Below, piece after piece: positions 7,576-49,112 of a stretch of 49,112 nucleotides of DNA. This DNA is from Candidatus Collierbacteria bacterium (GTDB taxonomy: Bacteria; Patescibacteriota; Microgenomatia; UBA1400; JACPES01). A model generated the notes under the pieces. That model was not told where the DNA came from, ran no database searches, and saw nothing but the letters and a program-made list of their open reading frames with translations. Position numbers and translations under genes: made by a program. Where the stretch lies: positions 539,154 to 588,265 of the forward strand of contig JACPES010000003.1 in NCBI GenBank assembly GCA_016183365.1, in the 5' to 3' direction. How positions within the stretch are numbered: the stretch's first letter is position 1; every line of letters starts with the position of its first letter.

Positions 7576-7587
7576 CCAAGAAAGATA

Positions 7588-7700: not shown

Positions 7701-7708
7701 AATCTATT

Positions 7709-9331: not shown

Positions 9332-9385
9332 TCAGACCTATGAATTTTTCTTTGTCAATGTTATTAAGACGAAGTTAATACAACT

Positions 9386-9465: not shown

Positions 9466-9506
9466 GTTTAGTACAAATTTGGAATAGGTGGAATACAATA
9501 AGATAA

Positions 9507-11222: not shown

Positions 11223-11261
11223 CACGTTGACAATTCCATCTTCACCATTTAACATTTAATT

Positions 11262-11468
11262 ATGCTGACAAATGATGATTTGAAGAACATTGAAAAAGTG
11301 GTTGAAAATAAAATCGATCCATTCAGAGAGGAATTTCAGAAATATAAAAAATAATCGATTGAATGGTTTGAAGCGATTTTTGACGATTTGCAAGATAAGC
11401 ATCAGGAGATGAGGCAACTTAAAGCTAGAGTGTCTAGGTTTGAGAAAATACAACCAATCACAACTTAA
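11262..11468 (+). pseudogene. small coiled-coil-like ORF interrupted by an in-frame TAA (or a genuine 30-aa ORF)
   Basis: MLTNDDLKNIEKVVENKIDPFREEFQKYKK-TAA(11352-11354)-SIEWFEAIFDDLQDKHQEMRQLKARVSRFEKIQPITT, all in one frame. It is below the ORF-track size cutoff. Confidence 0.35.
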
Positions 11469-12156: not shown

Positions 12157-12192
12157 GGTTAGTTAAAGTATTGTATAACTATATGGCTTTTT

Positions 12193-13959: not shown

Positions 13960-14053
13960 ATTAAGATTTATGATTTATGAATCAAACATTTCTTAATCGT
14001 AATTCGTAAATCATAATTCATAAATCGCCCCTATACAAATACAATCGAGTATT

Positions 14054-15545: not shown

Positions 15546-15807
15546 AATGTTGCGATCCTAATCTACGAATTCATCCGAATGATCCAAATATCATGATGTT
15601 GATGTTTCGTGATAGATTATTTTTCTGTTCGTCTCATATTAGCCCGAAGTAATACCAAGTGTCAAGGGGGTAAATCTATGTCAAATGCTGTCAGTTATAA
15701 TTATATAAACGCAATCCAACTCTACGAATTGAGTCCGAATCTTCGCATCCTTAATATTGGGAACATTCGGATGTATATTCGGATTATTCGGATCGCTGAA
15801 AGTAATT

Positions 15808-32271: not shown

Positions 32272-32310
32272 GGCGCGCTCAGCGCGCCTCTAACCACGCT
32301 CAGCGTGGTT
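32272..32310 (-). terminator. two consecutive CGC-TGA-GCG hairpins downstream of tRNA-Gln (processing or termination structures)
   Basis: On the minus strand these read aaccacgc-tga-gcgtggtt (which includes the tRNA ACCA end) and ggcgcgc-tga-gcgcgcc. There is no clear T-run. Confidence 0.4.
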
Positions 32311-32379
32311 GGGAGACAGGGAATCGAACCCCGATTAGCGGATCCAAATTCCGCTGTCCTACCGTTAGACGATCTCCCA
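32306..32379 (-). tRNA. tRNA-Gln(TTG), CCA encoded
   Basis: Cloverleaf folded by hand. U1-A72 acceptor TGGGAGA/TCTCCCA, anticodon loop ATTTGGA, T-arm CGGGG-TTCGATT-CCCTG. Confidence 0.9.
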
Positions 32380-32441
32380 ATTGAGCATATTTTACCTCAA
32401 ATCTTTAAATTGGAACATGGTTACGCTTATCTGATATTAAA

Positions 32442-32469
32442 TACTTCAATTATTTAAATAATTGAAGTA
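32442..32469. repeat. P2d: 28-nt perfect palindrome TACTTCAATTATTT/AAATAATTGAAGTA
   Basis: Checked base by base. It lies upstream of the minus-strand tRNA-Gln / GIY-YIG unit. Confidence 0.9.
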
Positions 32470-32516
32470 ATTAAGCTGTCGGCATTATTATTATAGATGA
32501 AAATTGATCCGATCTT

Positions 32517-35243: not shown

Positions 35244-35329
35244 GATGGGATATACTGTTTATACCATAATATACCGTAAACGAGCTACGGAAAGCTTTAG
35301 CTTAAATTAAGTGTATAATTGAGTTTGAG

Positions 35330-36877
35330 ATGGATTCAAAAAAATTGAAGGTATTATTTGTTTGCGCCGAAGTAGCCCCGTTTTCTTCGGTGGGCGGATT
35401 ATCCCAAGTGGCCTACTTTTTGACCCGGGCCTTAAAAAGATTGGGGGTAGACGCCAGAGTATTCACTCCGAAATACGGGATTATCGATCCTATCAAATAC
35501 CCAGCCAAAACTATTGTTTCAAGCTTAAAAGTACCTACCGGCGAAGACATTTCCAATAATAACAATCAGCCATTAAATATCGATTGCGCGATAGAATTTT
35601 ATCAACCGGCAAAAAACGATGTTCCGGTCTATTTCTTGGTCAACGAAGAGTATTACCAAAAAAGAGCCAATGTCTATAATTACAATGACGACCATATCCG
35701 CTTCAGCTTGTTTTCCAAAGCAGCCATAGAATTTATTAAGACCGGCGATTTTGTCCCCGATGTTATTCATGCCAACGATTGGCATACCGGATATCTGATT
35801 GATTTTTTAAAAAACGAAGGCGATTACAAATCCGACCCTTCTTTAAAAGAAATTGCCACTCTTTTATCAATCCACAATATTTACCAAGGGGTGTTTGATT
35901 TTGCCAACGCTAATCAGATGGATTTCGACGATGGTAAAAGCCCGCTGGCCTCGCTTTTTTCAGATATGCTCATCAAACAAAATTCCTTAAAGCGCGGGGT
36001 GATGTACGCCGACGTGGTCAATACGGTTTCCCAAACTTATGTCAGCGAGCTGTTGAACGCCGAGTATAGCGGCGGCCTGGAAAACCTATTCCGGGAATTA
36101 AGGGGGAAATTGTATGGTGTTTTAAATGGCTTGGACACGGCCGATTTCAACCCGTCAGCTGACGAAATAATCAAACAAAAATTCTCCGCAAGCTCGGTAA
36201 ATTTGAGAACGGCAAATAAACTGGATTTGCAAAAAAGATTCAATTTAAAAAATGATCCTGGAGTCCCTCTTATTTCTTATATCGGCCGGCTGGATTCCCA
36301 AAAAGGCTTGGACCTTGTCGTCCAAGAATTCGAGTACATAATCGAAGATTTGGGAGTCCAATTTATCATAGTCGGAACAGGTGAACAAAATTTTGTAGAA
36401 TTTTTTTCCGAAATGGGGAAAAAATACCCGGGGCAGGTCGGGACTCATCTGATGAGCGATTTTACTCTCCCCAGAAAAGTTTTTGCGGGAGCGGACATGA
36501 TCCTGATTCCCAGTAAATACGAACCTGGGGGGATAATTGCCATCGAAGCCCTGCGCTATGGCTGCATCCCGATAGTTCGCGCCACCGGGGGACTGGCTGA
36601 TTCTGTGGTAGATTATGACCCGAAATCAGGCAGCGGTTATGGTTTTACGTTTAAAAATTTTGTCCCCGAGGGGTTGTTGACGGCGGTGGTCCGAGCGATT
36701 GAAACTCACAAAAACCTGCCGCTTTGGGAAAAAATGGTTAAAAGGGCAATGTTAGCCGACTTTTCCTGGAAAAAGTCGGCTGAAAAGTATCTCGATCTCT
36801 ACCGCCGAGCGCTGCAGGTTAGAAAAGAATCGCTTCAACCCAATCCTTCTCCCACCTTCCAGCCCCTCTATTCCTAA
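35330..36877 (+). CDS. glgA: glycogen/starch synthase (GT5)
   Basis: KVLFVCAEVAPFSSVGGLSQV N-terminal motif and a GT-B C-terminal half (PSKYEPGGIIAIEALRYG). Confidence 0.85.
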   Translation: MDSKKLKVLFVCAEVAPFSSVGGLSQVAYFLTRALKRLGVDARVFTPKYGIIDPIKYPAKTIVSSLKVPTGEDISNNNNQPLNIDCAIEFYQPAKNDVPVYFLVNEEYYQKRANVYNYNDDHIRFSLFSKAAIEFIKTGDFVPDVIHANDWHTGYLIDFLKNEGDYKSDPSLKEIATLLSIHNIYQGVFDFANANQMDFDDGKSPLASLFSDMLIKQNSLKRGVMYADVVNTVSQTYVSELLNAEYSGGLENLFRELRGKLYGVLNGLDTADFNPSADEIIKQKFSASSVNLRTANKLDLQKRFNLKNDPGVPLISYIGRLDSQKGLDLVVQEFEYIIEDLGVQFIIVGTGEQNFVEFFSEMGKKYPGQVGTHLMSDFTLPRKVFAGADMILIPSKYEPGGIIAIEALRYGCIPIVRATGGLADSVVDYDPKSGSGYGFTFKNFVPEGLLTAVVRAIETHKNLPLWEKMVKRAMLADFSWKKSAEKYLDLYRRALQVRKESLQPNPSPTFQPLYS

Positions 36878-37182
36878 AACCCTACAAATTTACCTGTGAT
36901 AAGCGAACTTATGAGTGAAATCGAAGGAACCGATAGCCCGATTTCATCCCCGTTGTTCAAGATTTCAAATTCTGTGGGCCGTTTGTCATTTAGCCGCAAG
37001 CCTATGCTCCCGGGCGGATATTGTTTTTGGATCTCCGGATATGAGTCAAATATAAATTTGAGCATCATCAAGAAATTTAATCCTTCGGAAACTATCGCTT
37101 CCTCGCTCGCCACTCTGGTTATTTTTTGCAGTTCCTTGTCGTAAATAATTTGCACTTTGATTGGTTTTGGAAATGACTTCAT
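36874..37182 (-). CDS. hypothetical protein (102 aa)
   Basis: An ORF of reasonable coding appearance, convergent with glgA. No family was recognised with confidence. Confidence 0.4.
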   Translation of the reverse strand: MKSFPKPIKVQIIYDKELQKITRVASEEAIVSEGLNFLMMLKFIFDSYPEIQKQYPPGSIGLRLNDKRPTEFEILNNGDEIGLSVPSISLISSLITGKFVGF

Positions 37183-37286
37183 GTTGTCTCCCTCATTAAG
37201 ATTTTACAATATTTTTTGTTTTTTTCATCCGGATGAAAACCGCCGGCATAAAATGTATAGGACGCCCACATTTTGGACTGAAGCGG

Positions 37287-37540
37287 TTAGAGAAACTGTT
37301 GTAGATATGCTATTGGTGTCTGCATCTTCAACGAATAATGTGGTCTTTTTGTGTTGTACCAGTTCAAATAGTGTAACAGTTTCTCTTCAAAAGAAAACAG
37401 ATCGTAATAAAGCTCGTCGCTCCAGTTTAAGAACTCATCCTGGATTGTTCGATTAAACCTCTCTACGCCAGTGAAGAGAAAAGAATAAATTTTGCTCTTA
37501 ACTCTACGCGGCCGCGAGGAGTTAATGACGAGGGGATAAT
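37287..37540 (-). mobile_element. remnant of a DDE (rve, IS481/IS3-like) transposase: C-terminal end only
   Basis: The minus-strand frame reads ...GVERFNRTIQDEFLNWSDELYYDLFSFEEKLLHYLNWYNTKRPHYSLKMQTPIAYLQQFL-stop. No upstream catalytic core or start codon is present. Confidence 0.6.
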
Positions 37541-37594
37541 GACATTCTCAAATTCTTGAGAATATTGGAATGATCAAAAGGGTTGGAAGGTTCG

Positions 37595-38365
37595 TTATAA
37601 ATATTTTAAAACCAATCTGGAGAAATTGGTGTCGCCTGATTTAACAGATTCTTCCGAAACATCTTTTAAATACCTGTCATAAGCGCTGCTGGACCATAAG
37701 TGGTAAACATACGGCTCGGGGATCTTATCAGCAGTCTCATAAAATCTCTTTAAATCTTCTTTATCCCAGCTAAAACCGTAAAACCGGTCAAATGGAATCA
37801 CTTCTATCTCGTCAGCCCAGTAATGCGATAAAAAGTACGGATATTTAATGCTTGATTCCGTCCAGTACAAATCGTGCCCTGACGATCTGAACCCCCGCCA
37901 TAATGACTTGGCCGGATCATAACCGTCCAACCACCTTTTCAAAAAATTTGCCCCCGGTTCAGCTAATATCGTCGCGCTGCACAACCCCACCGTTTTTCCG
38001 CGAGCCTTTTCTTCACCCAACACCACCGAATTTTCTGTTAACGGCCCGAACGGCCGGTTGCAGATTACATCGGTATCTAAATAAATCCCGCCGGTTTCTA
38101 ATAGTTTCTTAAGCCGCCACACATCTGCTTTATGGGACAGCAAAGTCAACTTTTGTCCGAACGCCTCTTCCACAGGTTCAATTTTAACCGGCTCACAAAA
38201 CTTCTTTGCCTTCATCCACCACTGCCCGCTTGGTTCGGTATCGTAATGAAAATGAATTTTATCGGGATTATTCACTATAGCCGCCGCTTTAACCGCCGCA
38301 TAATTAACCAGGCCGAACGGCCTGCCTCCGAAGTAGCAAAAGTGGATTATATTTGGGACTGCCAT
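37595..38365 (-). CDS. DXD-motif glycosyltransferase (Gly_transf_sug / OCH1-like)
   Basis: PNIIHFCYFGG near the N-terminus and GGIYLDTDV. Confidence 0.65.
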   Translation of the reverse strand: MAVPNIIHFCYFGGRPFGLVNYAAVKAAAIVNNPDKIHFHYDTEPSGQWWMKAKKFCEPVKIEPVEEAFGQKLTLLSHKADVWRLKKLLETGGIYLDTDVICNRPFGPLTENSVVLGEEKARGKTVGLCSATILAEPGANFLKRWLDGYDPAKSLWRGFRSSGHDLYWTESSIKYPYFLSHYWADEIEVIPFDRFYGFSWDKEDLKRFYETADKIPEPYVYHLWSSSAYDRYLKDVSEESVKSGDTNFSRLVLKYL

Positions 38366-39513
38366 TCTTTATATTTGGTTTCTACATTTCCCGACCAGTG
38401 ATACTGCCACATTTTATTTAAAAACAAATGATACGCCTCTTCTGCCTTGGCCTTCTTCTGATTATCAATATTTGCCATTCTGACGCATTTGATCAAATTC
38501 CTGGCGCCGGTTCCCACCAAATCCGGATGCCACCAAGGCCAATTGGACAACCAATATAAATAACACGACGAATTAGCCTGATCGAAAAGATCCTCGGCCG
38601 CGCCATCCAAACTGCCCAAAGTCAAATCGTGAACCATTTTCAATAATTGTAAATATTCCTGTTGCAAACCGTTTTTATTCCACAGATCAAACCCTTGACA
38701 GTTTTGCCAGGAAGAAGCTTTAACGTCAGAGATTGTTTTTACCTGATTGCCAAATTTAACCACAGCTTCGGAAGCTGTGATAAATTTAATTTCTTTGGCG
38801 TCCAACAAGTCAGCCAGCACTTGTAATCTTTCCGAATAGTGATGGCCAAACAGTTCGGCGTCATTTGCGGTGACGATTAAATCTTCTTCGCCGCTATTCT
38901 TTTGGATCAAATTTAATACTATTTCTACAGAAAGCTGTTTAGGATACGATCTAAACAATCCGCCAATTTGGCGATTATTTATTAACAGATATTTTCTGTC
39001 ATATTTGACTATTGAAGTTGATATTTTAGAACTTGATTCCGGAGCGTTTTCATCTACAAACACATAATTTATAGATTCCCGCTGTTGCGGAAATGACACC
39101 GAGTTGTGAATTAAATCAAGGGTGTCTTTATCTACCGCCAGCTCGGGAGGGAAAAATCCTGCTGTCGATTCTACCCCAAATAAATTTTTTAAGGTCAGGC
39201 TATTTTTTTCGATTTGTCTGATCAGGATGTCTTTTGGAGTTATCGGCATCAGCGGGTGATACATGACGCTATTGACAATTTCAACCTTTCCGCTGCTAAT
39301 AAGTTTTTTTATCAGATCAAAGAATTCATCGACCCCCAACCGTTTCAACTGCAGTATCAGACTGCCGCTGATGTTTAGCGTTAAACCAAATCCGGACTTT
39401 TCTGAAAGTATTCTCAACAAAGGCAGATAACACGATTCCAATACCGACTTGGTAATCTTTAATTCCTGCGTCGGGGGCTGATAAAAATGCAGAACCATTG
39501 ACCAATATTTCAT
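38347..39513 (-). CDS. glycoside hydrolase family 57-like protein
   Basis: LHFYQPPTQ N-terminal signature and NISGSLILQL. It neighbours glgA. Confidence 0.65.
   Translation of the reverse strand: MKYWSMVLHFYQPPTQELKITKSVLESCYLPLLRILSEKSGFGLTLNISGSLILQLKRLGVDEFFDLIKKLISSGKVEIVNSVMYHPLMPITPKDILIRQIEKNSLTLKNLFGVESTAGFFPPELAVDKDTLDLIHNSVSFPQQRESINYVFVDENAPESSSKISTSIVKYDRKYLLINNRQIGGLFRSYPKQLSVEIVLNLIQKNSGEEDLIVTANDAELFGHHYSERLQVLADLLDAKEIKFITASEAVVKFGNQVKTISDVKASSWQNCQGFDLWNKNGLQQEYLQLLKMVHDLTLGSLDGAAEDLFDQANSSCYLYWLSNWPWWHPDLVGTGARNLIKCVRMANIDNQKKAKAEEAYHLFLNKMWQYHWSGNVETKYKEWQSQI
39073..39098 (-). repeat. in-frame single hairpin module (tgtcatttccgcaacagcgggaatct on the coding strand) inside the GH57 gene
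   Basis: Encodes SVSFPQQRESI. The stem is ttccgc/gcggga(a). Confidence 0.8.
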
Positions 39514-39544
39514 TTAGCTCAAAATTATACGCTATAATATCTAA

Positions 39545-39889
39545 ATGAAGAAAAAACAGCCAAATCCTCAATTTTCAACTCCTTTCAATGATTATTTCAA
39601 ACTTTTTGATAAATATGATAAGAAAGTTAAGTATACGGAGGAGTACGGATCATTTTTAATCTTAAGCTTGGTAGAAGAAATCGGCGAAATGGCCCGGGCC
39701 TACTTGGCAAAGCACGGCCGGAAACAAACCAATCTGGCCGCCCAAGAGGATGAAACCTACGAGCAGGAATTAGGCGACATTTTGATCTCAATCCTGCGGT
39801 TTGCCCGGATAAAAAATATCAACCTCCACGAACGGGTCATGTATTCGTTGAAAAAGATTGAAAAGCGTCAGGACGAGCCGAAAAGATAA
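39545..39889 (+). CDS. MazG-like nucleotide pyrophosphohydrolase domain protein
   Basis: The EEIGEMARAY and ELGDILISILRFA helices, typical of the MazG/all-alpha NTP-PPase fold. Confidence 0.7.
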   Translation: MKKKQPNPQFSTPFNDYFKLFDKYDKKVKYTEEYGSFLILSLVEEIGEMARAYLAKHGRKQTNLAAQEDETYEQELGDILISILRFARIKNINLHERVMYSLKKIEKRQDEPKR

Positions 39890-39896
39890 CTTGATG

Positions 39897-39967
39897 AGCG
39901 GGTAAGGGGAATCGGACCCCTATATCCTGATTGGCAACCAGGCGTACTACCACTGTACTATACCCGC
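39897..39967 (-). tRNA. tRNA-Gly(GCC)
   Basis: GCGGGTA acceptor, anticodon loop TTGCCAA, T-arm AGGGG-TCCGATT-CCCCT. No encoded CCA. Confidence 0.9.
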
Positions 39968-40092
39968 AACGTAAAATTTTCTTCGAAAATTAACGTTGTT
40001 GAAGCGTTTAAATATTTTAATATTTATTACGCTTCGCACGCTAATTCGTAATTATACATTTATTAATCAATACGGTAAAATATGCTTAGCAT

Positions 40093-40179
40093 GGGCGGGT
40101 GGCGAAATTGGCAGACGCACAACTTTGAGGGGGTTGTGATCGCAAGATCGTGCAGGTTCAAGTCCTGTCCCGCCCACCA
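40093..40179 (+). tRNA. tRNA-Leu(GAG), long variable arm, CCA encoded
   Basis: GGGCGGG/CCCGCCC acceptor, anticodon loop TTGAGGG, variable arm gatc-gcaa-gatc, T-arm GCAGG-TTCAAGT-CCTGT. Confidence 0.9.
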
Positions 40180-40380
40180 AGGTTGGATAGGAGGTTTCCC
40201 GCAAAGCGGGATTCCGTGTATCGAGACGATTTTGCTAAAATCGCACGATACACGATAACAAGTCCTGTCCCGCCCACCAAGGTTGGATAGGAGGTTTCCC
40301 GCAAAGCGGGATTCCGTGTATCGAGACGATTTTGCTAAAATCGCACGATACACGATAACAAGTCTTGTCCCGCCCACCAA
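40159..40380 (+). repeat. tandem repeat: 100-nt unit x 2 (identical) plus a 22-nt partial third unit; each unit starts with the last 21 nt of tRNA-Leu
   Basis: Units at 40159-40258 and 40259-40358 are identical by eye. 40359-40380 repeats caagtcTtgtcccgcccaccaa with one change. Each unit contains the hairpins tcccgc-aaa-gcggga and cgtgtatcg..cgatacacg. Confidence 0.95.
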
Positions 40381-40386
40381 TAGTTG

Positions 40387-41012
40387 ATGATACTAACAAG
40401 AGATGAATGCTTGGCAGAGTTGATAGGAATTATCTTGGGTGATGGTAATCTCGGATTTTACCCTAGATATCCAAAAAAAAGTTCTAAAAATCCGTTGCCA
40501 TTATTTAAGAATTTATTGTTTTCTTAATGAGGAACAATACGCTAATGAAATAGAATTTATATTAAAAAAAGTATTTAAAAAGCAATGTTATATTTACAAA
40601 CGACCATCAGAAAATGTTTTGTACCTTGAAATATCTTTGAAGTCGCTCGATACATTGTTGGGTTTATCTATTGGCGATAAGATAAAAAATAAAGTAGAAA
40701 TTCCAAATTGGATTTTCAATCACAAAAAATATTTATTATCTTGTATCCGGGGATTATTCGATACCGATGGATGCTGTTACTTGACAAAAAAAATATCGAA
40801 TTGTTAATTTTACGAGCGCAAATCCAGCTTTGCTAAAAAACATACGGTCAGGTTTAGTGCTTTTGGGTTTTCACCCTTATATTAAAGGAGAAAAATATGT
40901 CGAAATTTGTCGACAAAATGAGGTAACAATGTTTTTTGATAAGATAAAGCCCAGAAATAGAAAACATTATCGTCATGCCGGAGTAGCCAACTTGGTGACG
41001 GCGCGTGTCTGA
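40387..41012 (+). pseudogene. LAGLIDADG homing endonuclease, split over three frames by two A8 runs
   Basis: Frame 1 gives LAELIGIILGDGNLGFYPRYPKK (motif 1). After A8 at 40473-40480, frame 2 continues ...LLSCIRGLFDTDGCCYLTKK (motif 2). After A8 at 40786-40793, frame 3 gives YRIVNFTSANPALLKNIRSGLVLLGFHPYIKGE.... The last frame runs into tRNA-Phe. Confidence 0.75.
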
Positions 41013-41049
41013 AAAACACGAGATATAGGTCCGATTCCTATCTCCGGCA
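40977..41049 (+). tRNA. tRNA-Phe(GAA)
   Basis: GCCGGAG/CTCCGGC acceptor, anticodon arm CGTGT-CTGAAAA-ACACG, T-arm ATAGG-TCCGATT-CCTAT. Confidence 0.9.
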
Positions 41050-41068
41050 CAGAAAATGAACTCATATC

Positions 41069-41105
41069 GGATCTGTAGCTCAACGACAGAGCGTTCAGTT
41101 TACAC
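41069..41105 (+). pseudogene. 5'-half tRNA fragment resembling tRNA-Val(TAC)
   Basis: ggatctgtagctcaacgacagagcgttcagtttacac parallels the first ~37 nt of the intact tRNA-Val 50 nt downstream. It has no 3' anticodon-stem strand and no T-arm. Confidence 0.5.
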
Positions 41106-41120
41106 CAGCCCGACTAGAAT

Positions 41121-41194
41121 GGACTCGTAGCTCAGTTGGTTAGAGCATTCGGTTTACATCCGAAAGGCCAGAGGTTCGAGACCTCTCGAGTCCA
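41121..41194 (+). tRNA. tRNA-Val(TAC)
   Basis: GGACTCG/CGAGTCC acceptor, D-arm GCTC-AGTTGGTTA-GAGC, anticodon loop TTTACAT, T-arm AGAGG-TTCGAGA-CCTCT. Confidence 0.9.
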
Positions 41195-41249
41195 CAATGA
41201 GGAACGTTTAATTTCGAAGAAATTATTACATTCCACCAAACTTCTAACC

Positions 41250-41333
41250 AGCCCTGGTGCTGAAATTGGCAGACAGGCACGCTTCAGGAGCGTGTGTTCG
41301 TAAGAACGTGCGAGTTCAAATCTCGCCCAGGGC
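41250..41333 (+). tRNA. tRNA-Leu(CAG), long variable arm
   Basis: GCCCTGG/CCAGGGC acceptor, anticodon arm CACGC-TTCAGGA-GCGTG, variable arm gttcg-taa-gaac, T-loop TTCAAAT. Confidence 0.9.
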
Positions 41334-41342
41334 ACAAAACAA

Positions 41343-42143
41343 CTAAGGTTTTTTATTGTTGCCAGAGAAGCTAACCTCAAATTTTCTCAACAATAACAAG
41401 CCCATGATAACCATCGATCCCGAACTCGCCTGGGCCATGTTAAGTTCAATTCCGGACGGTAAATTCAATTGCCATACAAATTCCGCCGGCCTCAAAAAAT
41501 CCAACCAAAATCTTCCCACTCCATACCAAACTAGATAAAAACCGGTGAAACTTCTTTTTATCCATCCCAATTTGTTTGTTTTCTCCGCTAAAAACATCAA
41601 TCCAAATCCCAACAGCATCCACAACGCTTCATAAGCGAATAGGGGATGGAACCAACTGAATTGTTCATATCCTGACAAACGGTTTTTGGGTTCAATATAA
41701 ATTCCCCACGGCAAGTCAGTCGGCATTCCATAAACTTCCTGGTTGATAAAATTGCCGATTCGGCCGATGGCTTGTGCTAACGGCAAACCGAAAAAAGCTA
41801 TATCAACGAGATGCTGGAATGAATGTTTCAATCTGAAATTTGAAGTCTGAAATCTGAAATATAGCGCTAACCCAATAATTCCGCCGATCAGTCCGCCAAT
41901 GATGCCCAAGCCGCCATTCCAAACATAAAACGCGCTTATAGGATTAAGTGAATAAATTTCGTTCCACAAATCCAAAACATGATAGATTCTAGCGCCGATT
42001 AAACCGCTGATAAGCGCCCACCAGGCAACTTTCCAAATAACCTCCTCTCCAATTCTCCGCCTCTTAGCCAGCCACGTCGAAGCTTGCAGTGCCGCTAAAA
42101 TTCCAACCCCGATTATCAATCCGTACCAGTGAAGTCCGAACAT
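41343..42143 (-). CDS. lgt: prolipoprotein diacylglyceryl transferase
   Basis: N-terminal HWYGLIIGVGILAA and the conserved GRIGNFINQEVYG. It contains an in-frame word tract at 41829-41860 (RFQTSNFRLKH). Confidence 0.9.
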   Translation of the reverse strand: MFGLHWYGLIIGVGILAALQASTWLAKRRRIGEEVIWKVAWWALISGLIGARIYHVLDLWNEIYSLNPISAFYVWNGGLGIIGGLIGGIIGLALYFRFQTSNFRLKHSFQHLVDIAFFGLPLAQAIGRIGNFINQEVYGMPTDLPWGIYIEPKNRLSGYEQFSWFHPLFAYEALWMLLGFGLMFLAEKTNKLGWIKRSFTGFYLVWYGVGRFWLDFLRPAEFVWQLNLPSGIELNMAQASSGSMVIMGLLLLRKFEVSFSGNNKKP

Positions 42144-42296
42144 ACAATGAGTTTACCAGTTTGGTAAACTAGAAATCGGAAGTGAAGTGTTTAGAGACAA
42201 GTAATGGAAAGTGGTGACTGGTGTTTGGAGATTACCAGTCTCAAATTTCCAATCTCTATTACTGAACACTAAATCACATCACTCTAATCACAAATT

Positions 42297-42686
42297 ATGA
42301 AGCCTGACTTTGGCTCAATATTCACTCCTTTTTTCTGGATAACTATCACTTTCCTGGCGATTACCTACGGCCCGGTGCTTGCCGGCCGTCTAAAGGGCGA
42401 CATAAAATCGGCCGAAATCAAGCAACAGATTATTGATCGGTCTCCGCAGCCAATTAAATTAATTCTGGGCGACCAAACTCAAAGTCCTGATGACACTTTC
42501 ATCAGCCAATCCGTTAAACCGGCCGGGCAAATTTCAACCTATGTCAAAAATGTAATCGATGACGCCACTAAAGCCGTAATCGATAAAGGCTCATTCCAAT
42601 TAGAGGAAACTAAACAGCAAACCACCTCTTTGGTCTGCAAACAAATAATTACCGAGGTCCAAAAACAGTGCGGAATCGAACAATAA
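42297..42686 (+). CDS. hypothetical N-terminally anchored protein (129 aa)
   Basis: One hydrophobic N-terminal span. No family was recognised. Confidence 0.4.
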   Translation: MKPDFGSIFTPFFWITITFLAITYGPVLAGRLKGDIKSAEIKQQIIDRSPQPIKLILGDQTQSPDDTFISQSVKPAGQISTYVKNVIDDATKAVIDKGSFQLEETKQQTTSLVCKQIITEVQKQCGIEQ

Positions 42687-42735
42687 AAAAAATATTCGTG
42701 TCATTCGTATGCAATTAGCAGATTCGTATCGCCTG

Positions 42736-43401
42736 TCATCTGTGAGCGAATATTCCGACATAAAACGGAAATCTGCCACTGATACAAGCGTGGGTCCAGT
42801 CGTTGGACAGTTGGGCGTTGCGGTGGGGAGAGCTCGAATCCCATCCCCATTCGATAATTTGGGTCGCGATGGCGTATTCCGGTAAATAGGCCAAATTTTC
42901 AGCTATGGCCGGAAAATTAGTTTCCTTAAACACCGATTCATTAGCGGCATCGCGTTCAAAACCGGCGTGAGAATCAAGGGACGCTTCTCCTGATTTCAAA
43001 GTCAAATACCGCGTCTGATGTTCCTCAACTCTTTTTCTGGCATAAACGCACAAAGATTCCTCTTTAACCAGATGATTGCGATTTTGGGCTTGCCGGTAAT
43101 CCGCCAAAGCCTGCCACAATTGATCTTCGGAAATATGCGGTGGCGGAGTCGGAGCCCTGACTGTTTTCGTCGGACGGGGAATTGCCCCGTTTGGAGACAT
43201 AGTCGGAGTAGACAAAGATTGAGGAGCAATCCGACTTTGGGCCAATACTTCTAAAAAATAATTATGGTAATCCTGAAAAGATTCTAAAGTTTCCCGGCTG
43301 ATATCTGAATAAATTTTTAAATGGACAGCAACCGAAAATACAATCGACAAACCAAAAATAAAAACAAAAAACAGTATTCCGGGCAAAATTCGTTTTATCA
43401 T
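42736..43401 (-). CDS. membrane-anchored CAP/SCP (PR-1-like) domain protein
   Basis: N-terminal TM. The C-terminal domain contains SHAGFE ... ENLAY ... GWDSSSPHRNAQL, typical of CAP domains. Confidence 0.6.
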   Translation of the reverse strand: MIKRILPGILFFVFIFGLSIVFSVAVHLKIYSDISRETLESFQDYHNYFLEVLAQSRIAPQSLSTPTMSPNGAIPRPTKTVRAPTPPPHISEDQLWQALADYRQAQNRNHLVKEESLCVYARKRVEEHQTRYLTLKSGEASLDSHAGFERDAANESVFKETNFPAIAENLAYLPEYAIATQIIEWGWDSSSPHRNAQLSNDWTHACISGRFPFYVGIFAHR

Positions 43402-43409
43402 GACTTATT

Positions 43410-43486
43410 TGGGGTGGTGTACGGGAGTCGAACCCGCTAAAACTACCTCCACAGGGTAGCGCCTAAGCCGTTCGGCACACACCACC
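43410..43486 (-). tRNA. tRNA-His(GTG) with encoded G-1 and CCA
   Basis: G-1 opposite C73, acceptor GTGGTGT/ACACCAC, anticodon arm CTACC-CTGTGGA-GGTAG, T-arm GCGGG-TTCGACT-CCCGT. Confidence 0.9.
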
Positions 43487-43507
43487 ATATTATTTATATT
43501 ATATTTG

Positions 43508-43579
43508 TGCCGGTAGCAGGAATTGAACCTGCATCTTGTCCTTAGAAGAGACTTACTCTATCCATTGAGCTATACCGGC
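43508..43579 (-). tRNA. tRNA-Arg(TCT)
   Basis: GCCGGTA/TACCGGC acceptor, anticodon loop CTTCTAA, T-arm GCAGG-TTCAATT-CCTGC. Confidence 0.85.
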
Positions 43580-43829
43580 CCGTGGTGCTCCTGACGAGGT
43601 CTTAGCCAGACTGCCAGGATTCATTCAAGAATTTAGCTCTAATCCTATTTTACCAGATTTTTTTATACGAATTGGAGCCAGAATTAGCCTCAAAAATGCC
43701 CCAGACGGCAAAATAAGCCAATTTTGCCCCTTATTTTCCTTTTATTAACCTTCTTTTAACTATTGTTAAGTAAGCATTTTACCTGTACAATTATGCATAA
43801 TAGGAATTGTTATATAAAAGTGACCAAAA

Positions 43830-44024
43830 ATGCCAAAAGACGATAAAAGGTTGCCGGAATTATTGACTATTGCGCAGGTGGCTAAAATACTTAATGTCCA
43901 CCCAACGACCTTGAGGCGGTGGGATAAGAAAGGAAAGTTAAAAGCCATTCGTGTAGGCACAAGACGCGGTGTTGGTGAAAGACGCTATCACCGAGAAGAT
44001 ATTATTAAGCTAATAACAAAGTAA
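43830..44024 (+). CDS. small excisionase/MerR-type helix-turn-helix DNA-binding protein
   Basis: LLTIAQVAKILNVHPTTLRRWDKKGKLKAIRVG..RRY..EDI matches the HTH_17 / Xis-like pattern. Its stop lies 4 nt before the next gene. Confidence 0.7.
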   Translation: MPKDDKRLPELLTIAQVAKILNVHPTTLRRWDKKGKLKAIRVGTRRGVGERRYHREDIIKLITK

Positions 44025-44028
44025 ATTT

Positions 44029-47000
44029 ATGTATACGCCGAATAAATCAATTATTGATAATGACAAGATTAAGCTCTTTACCGAGTTAAAAAACATTCTC
44101 AATGACCAGCCAAACCATTTTGACGTTGCCACCGGATACTTTAATGTCGGAGGCTTTGAGCTTGTCGCCCAAGAGATTAAGGGAGTAAAGAAGTTTAGAC
44201 TTCTACTCGGCCATTCCCCCTCAGTTGATGATAAAGTTAAACCGGATTTATTCGAGCCAATAGCTTTTTATAAAACGAATTTACGCGAGGACTTAGAAAA
44301 CGAAGAATTCACCTCTAAAAAATCACAGGCAGTCAAAGACCTTATCTCCTTCCTTGAGAAGCAGATCGTTGAAGTAAAACTTCTGGAAAAGCCATTCTTA
44401 CACGGCAAGGCATATATTTTTGATGATCTGGCCATTATTGGCTCTAGCAACTTTACCTATTCGGGACTTGCCGGCAATACAGAGCTAAACGCAGTTCTTA
44501 TTGACCCTCACCCCGTTTATGTAAAGAAAGAGTGGTTTGATAAATTCTGGGAGCAAGCCCGCGACTTTAAGCAAGAACTTATTGAAATTCTCAAAAGCTC
44601 AAAGCTAGGCACAAGAGAATACTCGCCTTACGAAGTTTATATTAAAGCGCTCTATGAACTTCAAAAGAAAGAGCTGGAACCTACAAGCGTAGTAGATTTA
44701 GCAACATTTCAAGAAGACGCGGTTAATCGTGTGTACTCATCACTAACCAACTATAACGGCGTATTAGTTGCTGATTCTGTCGGTCTTGGTAAAACATGGA
44801 TCGCAAAGAAGGTTATCGAGGATTTTGGCTTTTATAGAAGACGCAAGTTCTTGGTTATATGCCCCGCTCAACTTCACCGAATGTGGCAGGGGGAGCTTAA
44901 AGATGTAGGTGTATCAGAAAACATTATCCATCAAGAATATTTAGGCGGTGAAGGCTTAGACTTTGAGGATTTAGAAAAACGCCATCAGATAAAGCTCTCC
45001 GATATTTCTCTTATCGTAATTGATGAATCTCACAATTTCAGAAATCCTATATCTAACCGCTACGAAAACCTCTTTTCCCTTATAGAAAAAATCCGCTCAT
45101 ACGGCAAAACTCCAAAGGTAGTTTTAATGACTGCAACTCCAATGAATAACACTATTTGGGACTTTTACTTTCAGCTTATGCTTATTGGTCAAAACAATAA
45201 GCGCATGTTTATTAAACAAGGAATTTTTGACTTGCAAAAAGAGTTTAGCAAAGCCCAGAAAGGAAATACCAACCATATTAACGATGTTTTACAGTCGATC
45301 TCCATTCGTAGAACACGCCAGTATATTAGAGAAAACTACAAAGACGCGAAATTCAAAACAGAATCCGGTGAGTATAAAAAAATTGAGTTCCCAGATAGAA
45401 AACTCGAAGAAGTACACTATTCTCTTGATAAAGCCTATGACGGCCTCTATGCTGAGATTTCGCGCAAGATAGAAGCCGATTTAACCCTTGCCTACTACAA
45501 ACTCTCCGAGTACAAAGTATCCGAGAAAAAAGATTTAGTGGAAGTCCACAGAGGACAGGCTTTAGCCGGTATCTTTCAAACAGTTCTTCTAAAAAGACTG
45601 GAAAGTTCAGTCGAGGCATTTCGTAAAAGCGTTAAAAGCCACAAAGAGTTCTTGGGTGAATTTAAAAATGTTGTCCAGAAAGGAAAAATCTTACGCAAAA
45701 AGTTCTTCCTAAAATATATAAACAGCTTGGATGAATCAATTGAGGATATAGACGGCTTGGGAGACTTTGGTAATAGCTTGGAAGATATAGACCTTAAAGA
45801 CTATGACAAAGAAAAGATGTTTGCTGATATTGACCAAGATATTAAAGTATTTTCAACTATTTATGAGGACATAAAAAATATAGATGAAAGCCAAGACGCA
45901 AAACTTATTAAATTTAAGGAACATCTAATCAAAAATCTCAAGAACGAAAAAGCAGTTATCTTCTCCTACTACTCCGACACTGTTAAGTATGTAGCTCAAG
46001 CATTAGATAAAGATGAAGATTTTAAGAAAAAGTACGGCAAGAAAATAGCTTTCGTTACAGGCGCTAACTCATCAAGCGAGCGCCAGAATATTATTGAAGA
46101 TTTCTTAAATGGTAAGACAAATGTTGTTATTTCAACCGATATTCTCTCCGAAGGCCAAAACCTGCAACAAGCAAAAACAGTTACTAATTACGATTTGCAC
46201 TGGAATCCGGTGAGAATGATTCAAAGAGCGGGAAGAATTGATCGTATTGGTACCCCTTTCAAAGAAATTATTATCTATAACTTTTACCCAGAAGATGAGT
46301 TGGAATCGCTCCTTGATTTAGTAGAAACCTTACAGAAAAAAATTATGATGATTAACGATACCATTGGTCTTGATGCCTCTGTTTTAGGTGAACAGATTAA
46401 CCCTAAAGTGTTTGGTATTATCCGAGACTTAAAAAGTGAGGAAGAAGAAACGAAAGATAAGACAATGGAACTTTTGGAAGCCGAACAGTTCGGTGGCGGA
46501 GAACTTTTTTTCCAGCCCTTGAAAAACTTTGGACTAGATAAACTCCCCACGTTTGCCGATGGCTTACCTCATGGAATACAAAGTGGACTAAAGAAGGGTT
46601 ATAGAGGCATTTTCTTTTATTTCCAGTATGCAGAGGAGTATCACTTCTGGTACCTGTACGATTTAATTGACAAAGAGTTTAAGACCAACAAAACAGAAAT
46701 TTTAGACTTTATAGCCTGCAAGCAAGTCGAGCGACGAGTTGTCCCCGAAGATTACGATGTTTATTCAGCTCACGATGAAGTAAAAAATCGTATCGCAGAG
46801 CTTTTTAATGAAACAAGGTTTGAGGTTGAAATGCGTACTCCCTCCGGCAAGAAAGAAAAGTTTTTAATTGATATGCGGGATGAACTAGAACATATAAAAA
46901 CAGAGGTTTTATTTGAAGAAGATCAAAAAGAAAGAACAAAAATAGAAGAAATTGTTACTAAGATAAACGAGGTCAACTTTACTAAAAAACGTTTGCAGTA

Positions 47001-47166
47001 TTTAAGGCGTTCTTGGCAGGCTTACAAAAAATCACATCAGAACTGGCGAAAACTGGTTGCAGAGCTTGGTGACTTTTTATCGGATAAAGTCGAGACGCCA
47101 ACTGAAGTTATTGAAGAATTCAACGAGAAAAAGTTAAAACTTATTTGTGTTGACTATATTTCATGA
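44029..47166 (+). CDS. PLD-family (single HKD) nuclease domain fused to an SNF2-family helicase (1045 aa)
   Basis: HKD motif HGKAYIFDDLAIIGSSNFTYSG (from nt 44401). SNF2 motifs ADSVGLGKT, VIDESHNFRN, LMTATPMNN, STDILSEGQNLQ and WNPVRMIQRAGRIDRIG. The ~250-aa C-terminal region is unassigned. Confidence 0.85.
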   Translation: MYTPNKSIIDNDKIKLFTELKNILNDQPNHFDVATGYFNVGGFELVAQEIKGVKKFRLLLGHSPSVDDKVKPDLFEPIAFYKTNLREDLENEEFTSKKSQAVKDLISFLEKQIVEVKLLEKPFLHGKAYIFDDLAIIGSSNFTYSGLAGNTELNAVLIDPHPVYVKKEWFDKFWEQARDFKQELIEILKSSKLGTREYSPYEVYIKALYELQKKELEPTSVVDLATFQEDAVNRVYSSLTNYNGVLVADSVGLGKTWIAKKVIEDFGFYRRRKFLVICPAQLHRMWQGELKDVGVSENIIHQEYLGGEGLDFEDLEKRHQIKLSDISLIVIDESHNFRNPISNRYENLFSLIEKIRSYGKTPKVVLMTATPMNNTIWDFYFQLMLIGQNNKRMFIKQGIFDLQKEFSKAQKGNTNHINDVLQSISIRRTRQYIRENYKDAKFKTESGEYKKIEFPDRKLEEVHYSLDKAYDGLYAEISRKIEADLTLAYYKLSEYKVSEKKDLVEVHRGQALAGIFQTVLLKRLESSVEAFRKSVKSHKEFLGEFKNVVQKGKILRKKFFLKYINSLDESIEDIDGLGDFGNSLEDIDLKDYDKEKMFADIDQDIKVFSTIYEDIKNIDESQDAKLIKFKEHLIKNLKNEKAVIFSYYSDTVKYVAQALDKDEDFKKKYGKKIAFVTGANSSSERQNIIEDFLNGKTNVVISTDILSEGQNLQQAKTVTNYDLHWNPVRMIQRAGRIDRIGTPFKEIIIYNFYPEDELESLLDLVETLQKKIMMINDTIGLDASVLGEQINPKVFGIIRDLKSEEEETKDKTMELLEAEQFGGGELFFQPLKNFGLDKLPTFADGLPHGIQSGLKKGYRGIFFYFQYAEEYHFWYLYDLIDKEFKTNKTEILDFIACKQVERRVVPEDYDVYSAHDEVKNRIAELFNETRFEVEMRTPSGKKEKFLIDMRDELEHIKTEVLFEEDQKERTKIEEIVTKINEVNFTKKRLQYLRRSWQAYKKSHQNWRKLVAELGDFLSDKVETPTEVIEEFNEKKLKLICVDYIS

Positions 47167-47169
47167 GCT

Positions 47170-49112
47170 ATGAGAACTCAATTAGACTTAGATGAATTTA
47201 TACCGACAATGGATACACCGGAGAAGGTGTACCAACTTTTTGATTCATTAGGATATAAGGTACTTGATTCTCGCCTCAAGACTAACCCATCTGTTTATAA
47301 CTTACCGGTTAAGGAAGCCGCATTAGTTGAGAAGATTTATGCAGTTTCAAATTATGACCGCCGTTTTCAGATTCTTTTATTTAAACTCAAAGAGGAGAAC
47401 AAAGAAGCAATCCGTACAATACCGGAGAAAATATTACGCGAGGTAGACTTCCCTTTCATTATCTTTACCCCAGATTTTAAGACTTACACTTTTACTCTTG
47501 TTGAAAAAGTCCGTGAGGGACCCGGAGAGTTTAAGCGCAAACTTACAAAACTTGTAATTGATAGCAGTCAGCCCTATCACACGGACAAAGAAATACTAGG
47601 AAGCCTTGCGCTATCTGTTGATATCAAAACCCCCGTTGAGGTTTATAAGTTGTTTCAAGGCGCTTTTAGCGTTGAGAAGGTCACTAAGAAATTCTTTACT
47701 GAATATCGGGAAGTTTTTGAAAGATTAGTAAGAGAAGTTACTAAACAAAATAACCACCTGAAATTTACGCTTTTTTCCAGAGATGCTTCTGTAGAAAACT
47801 TCGTCAAAATACTCTTAGGTCGTTTAATGTTTCTCTACTTTATACAAAAGAGGGGGTGGCTTAACTGCTTCGATGGCTGGGGTAGTGGTGATAAAAAGTT
47901 TCTTTATAATAAATTTCAAGAGGCAAAGAAAGAAAAGAAAAACTATTTTAAGGATTATCTCGAACCGCTTTTTTTTGACACTCTCAATAATCCTCGCCGC
48001 GATAAGCCGGATCAAGCTACACAGTTTGGCGGTAGAATCCCCTTTCTAAACGGAGGACTCTTTGAACCCGAATACGACTATCAAGATGTAAGAAATCACA
48101 TACTTTTAGAAAACTCAACTTTCGATGATGTTTTCTCGGTTTTTGAGAAATACAACTTTACTGTTAAAGAGGACGAACCGCTTGAAAAAGAAGTTGCCAT
48201 TGACCCCGAAATGCTGGGTAAAGTTTTTGAGAATCTCTTGGAAGAAAACTTACGCAAAGGTAAAGGTACTTACTATACTCCGCGAGAAATTGTCCACTAC
48301 ATGTGCCATGAAAGCCTTATAAACTATCTGGCTTCCGAAGTTAGCCTAGATCAAGATGTAATAAGGAATTTCTTGGATCGTGAGCAGTCCCTAGAAAAGA
48401 AGGAGACTTTAAGTTCTGTTATACGAGGAAAGGCAAAGGAAATAGACGAAAAATTAGCTGATATTAAGGTTTTAGACCCCGCCTGCGGTTCTGGCGCTTT
48501 CTTGGTTGGTATGCTCCACGAAGTTATAAACGCCCGCCTAAGTCTTAATCGGGAACTGGGGCGTAGTTTCTCCGAATACGAGCTGAAAAAGGCAACAATT
48601 CAAAATAATATCTATGGCGTAGACATTGATCCGGGTGCAACTGAAATCGCCAAACTTCGTTTATGGCTAACTCTAGTTGTTGACCACAATCTATCGGAAA
48701 TAGAACCTCTCCCTAATCTTGACTACAAAATTATGGTCGGTAACTCTTTACTAGATGAATTTATGGGGGTAAAGCTCTTTAATTTTGAGAAGGCAAGACA
48801 GCAACCTAATGGTAAAAAAGTGCTCAAACTTTTTGAGGATGACATAAAACAAGTTGAGTTGTTTGAGGAAGATAATAAATCCGGCGTCTTAAAAGCTCTG
48901 CAAAAATTACACGCTTTATACTTCAAGGAGTCCGATCCTGAAAGGAAGAAGCAAATAAGAATTCAAATAGACAAGATCGAGTTTGATCTTATTGAGACAA
49001 CTGTAAAAGATGAGGTCAAAAAATTAGAAGATGAAATAAGCCATATAACCAGCAATCCTATGTTAAAAGGGTTAGGTATCCCAAAAGAGATAGCAGATAA
49101 AATTATAAAAAT
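47170..49112 (+). CDS. PglX/Eco57I-family (type IIG/BREX-like) N6-adenine DNA methyltransferase, 3'-truncated by the window edge
   Basis: All 647 codons from ATG 47170 to the window end were read by hand with no stop. Motifs are GRLMFLYFIQKRGWL, IPFLNGGLFE, YNFTVKEDEPLEKEVAIDPEMLGKVFENLL, TYYTPREIVHYM, LDPACGSGAFL (SAM motif I), IYGVDIDPGATEIAKLRLWL and LPNLDYKIMVGNSL. The NPPY motif is expected beyond the window. This ORF is not in the supplied track. Confidence 0.85.
   Translation, partial: MRTQLDLDEFIPTMDTPEKVYQLFDSLGYKVLDSRLKTNPSVYNLPVKEAALVEKIYAVSNYDRRFQILLFKLKEENKEAIRTIPEKILREVDFPFIIFTPDFKTYTFTLVEKVREGPGEFKRKLTKLVIDSSQPYHTDKEILGSLALSVDIKTPVEVYKLFQGAFSVEKVTKKFFTEYREVFERLVREVTKQNNHLKFTLFSRDASVENFVKILLGRLMFLYFIQKRGWLNCFDGWGSGDKKFLYNKFQEAKKEKKNYFKDYLEPLFFDTLNNPRRDKPDQATQFGGRIPFLNGGLFEPEYDYQDVRNHILLENSTFDDVFSVFEKYNFTVKEDEPLEKEVAIDPEMLGKVFENLLEENLRKGKGTYYTPREIVHYMCHESLINYLASEVSLDQDVIRNFLDREQSLEKKETLSSVIRGKAKEIDEKLADIKVLDPACGSGAFLVGMLHEVINARLSLNRELGRSFSEYELKKATIQNNIYGVDIDPGATEIAKLRLWLTLVVDHNLSEIEPLPNLDYKIMVGNSLLDEFMGVKLFNFEKARQQPNGKKVLKLFEDDIKQVELFEEDNKSGVLKALQKLHALYFKESDPERKKQIRIQIDKIEFDLIETTVKDEVKKLEDEISHITSNPMLKGLGIPKEIADKIIK

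Follow-up and report, generated by a model that had tools for sequence, protein, structure and literature searches.

The window analysed here is a stretch of 49,112 nucleotides (nt) from contig JACPES010000003.1 of a Candidatus Collierbacteria bacterium, and our subject is the group of genes at its right-hand end (43830-49112). A preliminary description had placed three co-directional genes here, 4 nt apart, and had taken them for a defence-type module consisting of a small helix-turn-helix (HTH) protein, a protein that joins a nuclease domain of the phospholipase D (PLD) type, with an HKD motif, to an SNF2 helicase, and an adenine methyltransferase. Based on the listing of open reading frames (ORFs) and direct translation, the three genes were recovered on the + strand. 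The spacing of 4 nt was correct for the HTH and HKD-SNF2 genes (ATTT), but the gap between the HKD-SNF2 and methyltransferase genes is 3 nt (GCT). With some reserve, we favour the reading that the region is a horizontally acquired operon for a two-component, ATP-dependent restriction-modification (RM) system with a small controller. The features of the operon, with the amino-terminal domain of the methyltransferase abbreviated as NTD and S-adenosylmethionine as AdoMet, are as follows (aa, amino acids).

43830-44024, + strand: DNA-binding protein of the HTH_17/MerR/excisionase family, 64 aa (Pfam HTH_17 5.8e-13, MerR 1.4e-10)
44029-47166, + strand: HKD(PLD)-SNF2 nuclease-translocase, 1045 aa, the proposed restriction subunit
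44029-44628, + strand: HKD domain, about aa 1-200, with HGKAYIFD at 44401-44424 (aa 125-132) and GSSN at 44440-44451
about 44686-45348, + strand: SNF2 lobe 1, with GLGKT at 44782-44796, DESH at 45022-45033 and TATP at 45130-45141
45910-46251, + strand: Helicase_C, with QRAGR at 46222-46236
46426-47163, + strand: conserved C-terminal alpha+beta region of the HKD-SNF2 protein
47170-49112, + strand: first 647 aa of a gamma-class N6-adenine methyltransferase (Eco57I/MmeI/PglX type), with a reading frame that runs off the window edge; the proposed subunit for modification and recognition
47170-47619, + strand: methyltransferase NTD, about aa 1-150
47647-48429, + strand: helical region of the methyltransferase
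48475-48495, + strand: AdoMet motif I of the methyltransferase, DPACGSG, aa 436

The 1045-aa protein had been said to combine a single-HKD PLD domain with a complete SNF2 ATPase, and both Pfam and the motifs agreed with this. Matches were obtained to PLDc_2 (4.2e-11, aa 101-174), SNF2-rel_dom (4.1e-12), ResIII (4.3e-09) and Helicase_C (1e-23), and the protein has one HxKx4D motif, the GSSN motif and the full set of SNF2 motifs. No variation was seen among 35 homologues at H125, at K127, in the GSS triad or in any of the helicase motifs. When the AlphaFold2 (AF2) model of the protein (predicted local distance difference test, pLDDT, 78; predicted template modelling score, pTM, 0.70) was compared with solved structures by Foldseek, the top matches were RapA (6bog, 1.8e-15) and SauUSI (7clg, 1.5e-14), and SauUSI, as the second-best match, was aligned over more than 1000 columns. 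The helicase family comprised 1,394 clusters of 50% identity at E<=1e-30, and its best 150 representatives were all about 1,000-1,330 aa long or fragments. The preliminary description knew of no named system with an N-terminal PLD-SNF2 fusion, and in this it was mistaken. The best PADLOC match of the protein was the model C3a139 'HKD+Snf2' (5.9e-57), which derives from Shah et al. 2018 (PMC6546367), and an N-terminal HKD Swi2/Snf2 protein with an N6-adenine methyltransferase has been described as the RM-like effector and partner in Type-2 BREX-related (BR) systems (Rakesh & Krishnan 2026, PMC12839542). The profiles of DrmD, BrxHII and HmaA also matched the helicase, at 1e-24 to 2e-51.

Assignment of the third gene to the PglX/MmeI/Eco57I-type adenine methyltransferases was borne out by Pfam matches to MmeI_Mtase (3.7e-11), N6_Mtase (1.1e-09) and Eco57I (2.3e-07). 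The NPPY motif, the TaqI_C-type target recognition domain (TRD) and the C-terminus lie outside the window; full-length orthologues are 1054-1130 aa long, carry Eco57I and TaqI_C, and have NPPY at about aa 693. Among the PADLOC profiles REase_MTase_IIG scored 8e-86, aligned only from profile position 186, compared to 8.5e-16 for PglX and 8.6e-15 for DrmMI. Neither a Pfam nuclease nor MmeI_N was matched by the window fragment or the full-length orthologues, and no D...ExK is conserved in the NTD, where the candidate positions read K-L-K in the window clade. The methylase seems to have no nuclease of its own. The AF2 model of a 95%-identical protein (P0122) gave BrxX/PglX (9ewz, 2.8e-19) as its best match, and by this predicted structure the nearest fold is that of full-length BREX PglX/BrxX, which has no nuclease.

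Recurrence of the gene pair in other genomes had been set as a test of the module, and the pair did recur. A genome scan gave 19 related loci (loci are numbered with L below), including Patescibacteria helicase copies with 89-96% aa identity. Exact look-ups of both window proteins gave no record, and the relatives' loci were used to establish what lies downstream of the window edge. For the pairing count, hidden Markov models from our own alignments were applied to 192 distinct loci, of which 40 were evaluable, having a helicase positive for HKD and no less than 3.5 kb of contig to either side, and the partner was sought within 6 kb. It was found that 32 of the 40 had the methylase within this distance, in relatives at 25-96% identity; one apparent exception carries a TaqI_C fragment. 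The partner methylase was 1050-1280 aa long (MmeI_Mtase/Eco57I/M_Eco57I_C) and on the same strand as the HKD-SNF2 gene, and the two genes were either direct neighbours, in many cases overlapping or spaced by 0-25 nt, or had nothing but inserted cassettes between them. The pair was seen in genome, metagenome and plasmid contexts of bacteria and archaea, namely in Patescibacteria, Caldisericota, Thermodesulfobacteriota, Caldithrix, Thermoplasmata, Aenigmatarchaeota, cyanobacteria, Deinococcus, haloarchaea, Rhodococcus, Pelobacter and Lactococcus. Most bacterial loci have the helicase gene ahead of the methylase gene; the methylase leads in the archaeal loci, in Caldithrix and in some other bacterial loci and plasmids. 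Carriage by phages was considered as well and rejected: an HKD-positive helicase was present in only 14 of 80 viral-contig matches, the rest being other SNF2 proteins. Seven of these 14 were evaluable, and five of the seven had the methylase.

The helicase gene was truncated in L005 (10001-12151, 716 aa), L008 (3191-4612, 473 aa) and L036 (2032-4242, 736 aa) and split in L017, the decayed copies being of Patescibacteria and archaeal origin. Since several copies are truncated or fragmented, the module appears to decay often, as expected of a costly defence gene.

According to the preliminary description the remaining genes of the system lay beyond the window, and DrmA/DrmB or PglZ/BrxC were to be looked for downstream. 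Nothing conserved follows the pair in the relatives. In a Pfam/PADLOC census of 132 neighbouring ORFs no third conserved gene was found, as no family occurred in more than three of 16 loci, and DUF499, DUF3780, PglZ, BrxC and DrmA/B (DUF1998) were absent from every relative context inspected. The best proxy for the missing part is L004 (JBBTZT010000003.1), a 330 kb contig with 96% aa identity in the helicase and 90% nt identity to the window. Its operon (L004 9802-16564) runs from the HTH gene through HKD-SNF2 to a 1130-aa methylase with Eco57I and TaqI_C. Downstream of it the order is a 343-aa ORF, the gene of an AAA_15/21 ATPase, ORFs of 215 and 86 aa, and tRNA-Gly; in other close relatives this place is taken by short ORFs that are unannotated and not the same. 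The 343-aa ORF (weak PLDc_2, E 0.003) and the 481-aa AAA_15/AAA_21 ATPase form a cassette at L004 16561-20039, which has the methylase on one side and on the other a conserved gene of 215-229 aa that is also present in L003 and L018, and they may be a separate inserted defence pair. ORFs of about 380 aa after the methylase in archaeal loci were rejected as core genes, as they proved to be a Peptidase_M78 + DUF4411 cassette that was inserted there and is met with in other places too.

In close relatives the first about 700 aa of the methylase were 85-100% identical and the TRD only 13-30%. Because the TRD diverges while the rest is conserved, specificity swapping in the style of RM systems is indicated. 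L002 and L024 (6071-9706) were mosaic relative to the window, with identities of 90% for the helicase, 81% for the methylase NTD and 35-38% for the remaining methylase, and the recombination breakpoint implied by this lies around methylase aa 150. In L031 (Lactococcus cremoris pJM1F, 8763-10230) an inverted stand-alone gene for a TaqI-like TRD and an Mpi-family invertase lie downstream of the methylase, and this spare TRD with its invertase looks like a phase-variable specificity switch for the HKD-SNF2/methylase system. Serine recombinases adjoin the pair in Pelobacter (L033) and Gottesmanbacteria (L024-L027).

The small protein in front of the pair had been called Xis/MerR-like. Besides the Pfam matches to HTH_17 and MerR, it scored 36 bits with TIGR01764 'excise', above the cut-off of 28.8, and 6.5e-16 with the PADLOC profile mad1. 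As a part of the system, as which it had also been presented, it did not hold up. Outside the window an HTH gene in front of the helicase was confined to L004 (aa identity 100%), L005 (95%) and L007 (62%), together with a few weak distant cases. The HTH protein is probably a lineage-specific accessory that serves as the transcriptional controller of the operon, and two features upstream of its gene bear on this role.

43763-43801, + strand: putative promoter, with -35-like TTGTTA at 43763-43768 and -10-like TACAAT at 43786-43791
43790-43801, + strand: perfect 12-bp palindrome ATTATGCATAAT, abutting the -10-like hexamer, the proposed HTH operator

A promoter and terminator scan of the locus gave promoter-like sites that were not enriched over shuffled sequence and are weak when taken alone; the promoter and operator are reported because they are conserved across loci. 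The block TGTACAATTATGCATAATA (window 43784-43802) was kept in the window, L004 and L005 and had one mismatch in L007, whose spacer outside the block is unrelated to that of the window. The presence of the palindrome ATTATGCATAAT in all four HTH-bearing loci suggests a C-protein-like operator.

The left flank of the module contains two tRNA genes, which had been described as its direct neighbours and were confirmed by ARAGORN.

43410-43485, - strand: tRNA-His(GTG), outside the module
43507-43579, - strand: tRNA-Arg(TCT), outside the module

Both lie upstream on the strand opposite to the module, and 250 nt separate the end of tRNA-Arg from the HTH start. Nucleotide homology with the module copy of L005 begins at 43583, 4 nt beyond tRNA-Arg. 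Otherwise the flanks are made up of housekeeping genes (BipA, UPF0182, glycogen synthase, GH57, Lgt and a cluster of tRNA genes). The module had been described as more AT-rich than these, and with a GC content of 0.377 compared to 0.419 in the rest of the window it fell below every sliding window of the same size elsewhere (mean 0.4216, sd 0.0125, minimum 0.398). DNA with 84-90% identity was found in other Patescibacteria in unrelated genomic contexts. The low GC and the differing flanks in relatives point to a mobile or foreign module, and the operon was probably acquired horizontally. Integration targeted to the tRNA was rejected, as the window has no integrase, the relatives lie in other contexts and the tRNAs have their 5' ends toward the module, unlike the usual geometry of integration at the 3' end. 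Within the 11 kb upstream of the module (32306-43579), amid housekeeping genes, there are eight tRNA genes (Gln, Gly, Leu, Phe, Val, Leu, His, Arg). In L007 (Amesbacteria) a UPF0182 copy that is 74% identical to window 32521-35221 lies near the module copy, hinting at a similar chromosomal location of the module in L007 and the window.

The methylase of the window is recorded in the protein database as a 647-aa product from a contig of 588,265 bp, and the window edge is therefore probably the end of the contig. An independent Woesebacteria contig (L036, LBVY01000013.1) ends at 4246-6186 with a 90%-identical methylase that is also cut at residue 647. Both breaks (in the window at 49016-49112) fall at the start of the TRD, where the identity among close relatives collapses. 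A shared terminal repeat behind the two breaks was rejected, because the ends are homologous and not identical; strain-level heterogeneity of the TRD may break assemblies at this residue.

Small cassettes of defence or toxin-antitoxin genes, unrelated to the pair, were found repeatedly between helicase and methylase, comprising MNT + HEPN, Peptidase_M78 + DUF4411, DUF3800, DUF262/GmrSD-like, AAA_21 + DUF4276, HicAB and ParE genes, and this intergenic space behaves as an insertion hotspot. Loci with such cassettes are the following.

L020: 13167-13867
L011/L016: 8346-9982
L003: 8500-9291
L029: 5985-8895
L126: 2360-4122
L023: 6446-10004

A sigma-70-family gene lies directly upstream of HKD-SNF2 in two distant loci, L028 (Planktothrix plasmid, 7426-8985) and L145 (3110-4900). 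In L035 (Enterococcus faecium plasmid, 8665-17777) an HTH gene, a more distant HKD-helicase, DUF4391, a 614-aa site-specific methylase and a second DEAD/DEAH helicase follow one another; this five-gene arrangement is a separate system type that uses a related helicase.

If the operon is a two-component RM system, the methylase, with its AdoMet/NPPY domain and its own TaqI_C-type TRD, would read a short asymmetric motif and methylate adenine on host DNA. At an unmethylated site it would load or activate the SNF2 motor, possibly via the NTD, and the HKD-SNF2 restriction subunit would then translocate along the DNA using ATP. Single-HKD nucleases such as Nuc and BfiI act as dimers, and SauUSI likewise joins two HKD domains. 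In the same way two single-HKD domains of the present protein would join to form one PLD-type active site and cut the DNA. The 64-aa HTH protein would bind the palindrome beside the -10 hexamer and autoregulate the operon like a C-protein, by which expression of the nuclease would be delayed or limited. We infer that helicase and methylase interact, that cleavage is coupled to translocation, that the HKD domains dimerise, that the HTH protein regulates the operon and that the system is active against phages. For HmaA, a nuclease-fused Snf2 helicase beside a methylase, phage defence is reported to need both the helicase and the nuclease activities (PMC11232893).

Several findings weigh against this reading. 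The methylase copy in the window is incomplete, which concerns the function of this particular locus. Eight of the 40 evaluable loci had no detectable partner methylase, and for this reason the helicase-nuclease may in some cases work by itself or together with different partners. A fusion of helicase and methylase was not found among the best 150 family representatives, and our literature search returned no experimental study of the HKD-SNF2 + methylase pair. HmaA is reported to defend on its own (PMC11232893). The identity of the NTD followed that of the helicase (rho 0.91) more closely than did that of the methylase body (rho 0.42), but this contrast was seen only where the end that encodes the NTD abuts the helicase gene, the values being 0.90 and 0.83 in the opposite gene order, and physical linkage could explain the co-variation. 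A role of the NTD as docking domain for the helicase was tried on this correlation, which failed the gene-order control, and docking can still be no more than proposed.

BREX PglX-like methylases do not work by simple cleavage, and a non-cleaving mechanism is thus conceivable here as well. In a BREX- or DISARM-like mechanism without classical restriction, the PglX-like methylase would mark self, and the SNF2 protein, with the HKD domain as only a nickase or accessory, would block phage replication or remodel protein-DNA complexes on unmethylated DNA in place of double-strand cuts coupled to translocation. We judge this unlikely. It would suit the BrxX/PglX-like fold of the methylase, the fact that an SNF2 + PglX-like pair is the common core of BREX type 3, DISARM class 1, ARMADA and BR systems (PMC12458937, PMC12839542), and the nickase activity reported for the HmaA nuclease (PMC11232893). 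However, the catalytic residues of the HKD motif are invariant, SauUSI as the closest solved PLD-helicase is a true restriction endonuclease, and PglZ, BrxC, DrmA/B, a YprA-like helicase and DUF499 were present in none of the relatives examined. The two genes might also be independent neighbours, a stand-alone defence nuclease similar to SauUSI or HmaA and an orphan or type IIG-derived methylase, co-located through defence islands. This is hard to reconcile with a co-occurrence of 80% down to about 25-30% identity in both prokaryotic domains, always in the same direction and often with 0-25 nt between the genes or an overlap. Moreover, the methylase without the nuclease would be a bare methylase, and an unregulated translocating nuclease without a self/non-self marker would presumably be toxic. 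Despite the protection against T4 that is reported for HmaA alone (PMC11232893), the eight loci without a partner and the unrelated defence cassettes that are often found between both genes, we consider independence quite improbable.

A function outside defence can be imagined, with the methylase in epigenetic regulation and the HKD-SNF2 protein as a RapA-like factor in DNA repair or transcription, under the control of the HTH regulator. Phase-variable type IIG methylases, Cj0031 among them, can have a part in epigenetic regulation. This precedent (Cj0031 is named in PMC9881135) and RapA as the top structural match of the helicase are in favour; the patchy distribution, the low GC, the location on variable islands and plasmids, the TRD swapping, the frequent decay (truncated copies in L005, L008 and L036) and a neighbourhood with many toxin-antitoxin and defence genes make it very improbable. 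We give hardly any credence to the idea that the genes in the window are the beginning of a larger, already classified locus (DISARM class 1, BREX type 3, ARMADA or Type-2 BR/Hma) with the rest beyond the edge. The pair does resemble DrmD-DrmMI, BrxHII-PglXI and ArmA-ArmB, the DrmD, BrxHII and HmaA profiles match the helicase as given above, and Type-2 BR helicases also carry an N-terminal HKD (PMC12839542). Yet the family scores were far below the curated cut-offs (175 compared to 610 bits for DrmD, 118 compared to 500 for PglX with full-length orthologues), the genes downstream in L004 are those listed above and those in the other close relatives are short, unannotated and of other kinds, DUF1998, PglZ, BrxC, DUF499 and DUF3780 were seen in no context inspected, and the contig appears to end at the window edge.

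The RM-like, defence-type nature proposed for the module in the preliminary description thus stands. The pair is a member of a widespread, unnamed two-gene RM-like family that others have noticed previously, and the window copy is one more member, from a Patescibacteria genome, which is useful and not surprising. The reach of the family is underlined by about 1,400 sequence clusters in bacteria and archaea. For the communication between methylase and effector in BREX type 3, DISARM class 1, ARMADA and Hma/BR, the two-gene, nuclease-bearing version would be the simplest experimental handle. It would also correct database practice, in which these methylases, although they seem to lack a nuclease, are labelled 'type IIG restriction enzymes' and the real restriction subunit is annotated only as 'helicase-related protein'. 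Bolder, and in our opinion somewhat doubtful, is the proposal that the pair is a distinct, very widespread and formally unnamed class of ATP-dependent RM systems, a 'split type ISP' with an SNF2 motor and a PLD nuclease, in which the methylase NTD recruits the motor-nuclease, and that it is the minimal working core from which BREX type 3, DISARM class 1, ARMADA and Hma/BR were elaborated. If the pair is a minimal core, it would be a simple model for the way in which PglX-type methylases signal to effectors.

Pairs of the same two-gene architecture and domain content are known from the literature, in which our search gave no name for them. In 2018 orf33/orf34 of the Lactococcus lactis plasmid pLd8 were described as a PLD-SNF2 protein and a nuclease-less 'type IIG' methylase, and the authors, who found no restriction domain in the methylase, proposed the PLD-SNF2 protein as the nuclease (PMC6098607). 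In 2023 Cj0031-like genes with an adjoining coding sequence for PLD(cd09178)+SNF were noted (PMC9881135). The window likewise has an adjacent, co-directional PLD-SNF2 gene and a large methylase that appears nuclease-less, and a related Lactococcus plasmid locus among our relatives also carries the pair. The literature pairs differ in being only 25-31% identical to the window helicase, with a longer Lactococcus helicase (1233 aa), in having no HTH_17 gene and, for some, in invertase-driven TRD switching. The preliminary description had thought of a fused or minimal variant of DISARM or BREX, or of an undescribed restriction system; the idea of a minimal helicase-nuclease-methylase system fits, whereas membership of DISARM or BREX does not, and the arrangement had already been described.

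Judged by its domains, its profile scores and the neighbourhoods of its relatives, the module is not DISARM, BREX, ARMADA, MADS or Type-2 BR/Hma. In DISARM class 1, too, a large Eco57I-like adenine methylase comes after an SNF2 helicase and a PLD nuclease takes part, but that nuclease is a separate protein (DrmC), whereas the PLD domain of the window is fused. The window helicase reached 175.4 bits with NCBIfam DISARM_DrmD (cut-off 610) and 74 with DrmD_b (cut-off 950), the match to DrmMI (8.6e-15, compared to 8e-86 for a type IIG model) covered a short stretch and suggests a common broad superfamily but not a common family, and DrmA/DrmB were found neither downstream in the 96%-identical L004 nor in any other relative examined, the window itself being cut. 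BREX type 3 (BrxHII + PglXI) and ARMADA (ArmA + ArmB) share with the window a core pair in which a RapA/Snf2-like helicase is accompanied by a PglX-like methylase, but PglZ, BrxC/PglY, BrxA and a YprA-like helicase were not found in the neighbourhoods of the relatives, and BREX_1_MTaseX gave 50.7 bits for the window fragment and 117-118 for full-length orthologues compared to a cut-off of 500. BrxHII-type helicases carry an N-terminal Tudor domain and not HKD (PMC12839542). The helicase of Type-2 BR/Hma is an N-terminal-HKD Swi2/Snf2 protein, as in the window with its PLDc_2, intact HxK...GSxN and complete SNF2 core. These systems are, however, defined by a DUF499 AAA+ ATPase and have a DUF3780 gene in 98% (PMC12839542), while DUF499 and a standalone DUF3780 were not seen beside the relatives of the window family, and the PADLOC HmaA profile covers only the core of the window helicase (1e-24). 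A sub-clade at about 35% identity without methylase matches was checked for membership of Type-2 BR and rejected, as it held no DUF499; its neighbours were a TaqI_C fragment, AAA_21 + DUF4276, an IS66 transposase and a sigma-70-like gene. With MADS the module has in common a small HTH_17-type gene, which there stands ahead of a DNA methylase and is matched by mad1; mad2 gave only 3.4e-11 in PADLOC and 38-49 bits in NCBIfam compared to a cut-off of 720, and no other mad genes were found.

Comparisons can also be drawn with single enzymes. As in type IIG/IIL enzymes (Eco57I, MmeI, Cj0031), methyltransferase and TRD are in one polypeptide, with Eco57I and TaqI_C/M_Eco57I_C in the orthologues, but the N-terminal PD-(D/E)xK endonuclease of such enzymes appears to be missing from the window methylase. 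SauUSI, a type IV enzyme (PDB 7clg), resembles the window protein in that an SF2 helicase follows a single-HKD PLD nuclease at the N-terminus. SauUSI has its own C-terminal reader of modified cytosine, targets modified DNA and has no partner methylase, whereas the specificity of the window system would presumably come from the separate methylase-TRD protein and its target would be unmethylated DNA. Type ISP enzymes (LlaGI, LlaBIII) unite a nuclease, an SF2 motor, a gamma-class N6-adenine methylase and a TRD, recognise asymmetric sites and cut after ATP-driven translocation. They do so in a single polypeptide, with an Mrr/PD-(D/E)xK nuclease and a motor like that of type I HsdR. The same four functional modules are present in the window system, distributed over two genes, which are divided by a stop codon and the gap of 3 nt, and with an HKD nuclease and an SNF2-family motor. 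By analogy, the module would work most like a split type ISP or a type III-like enzyme.

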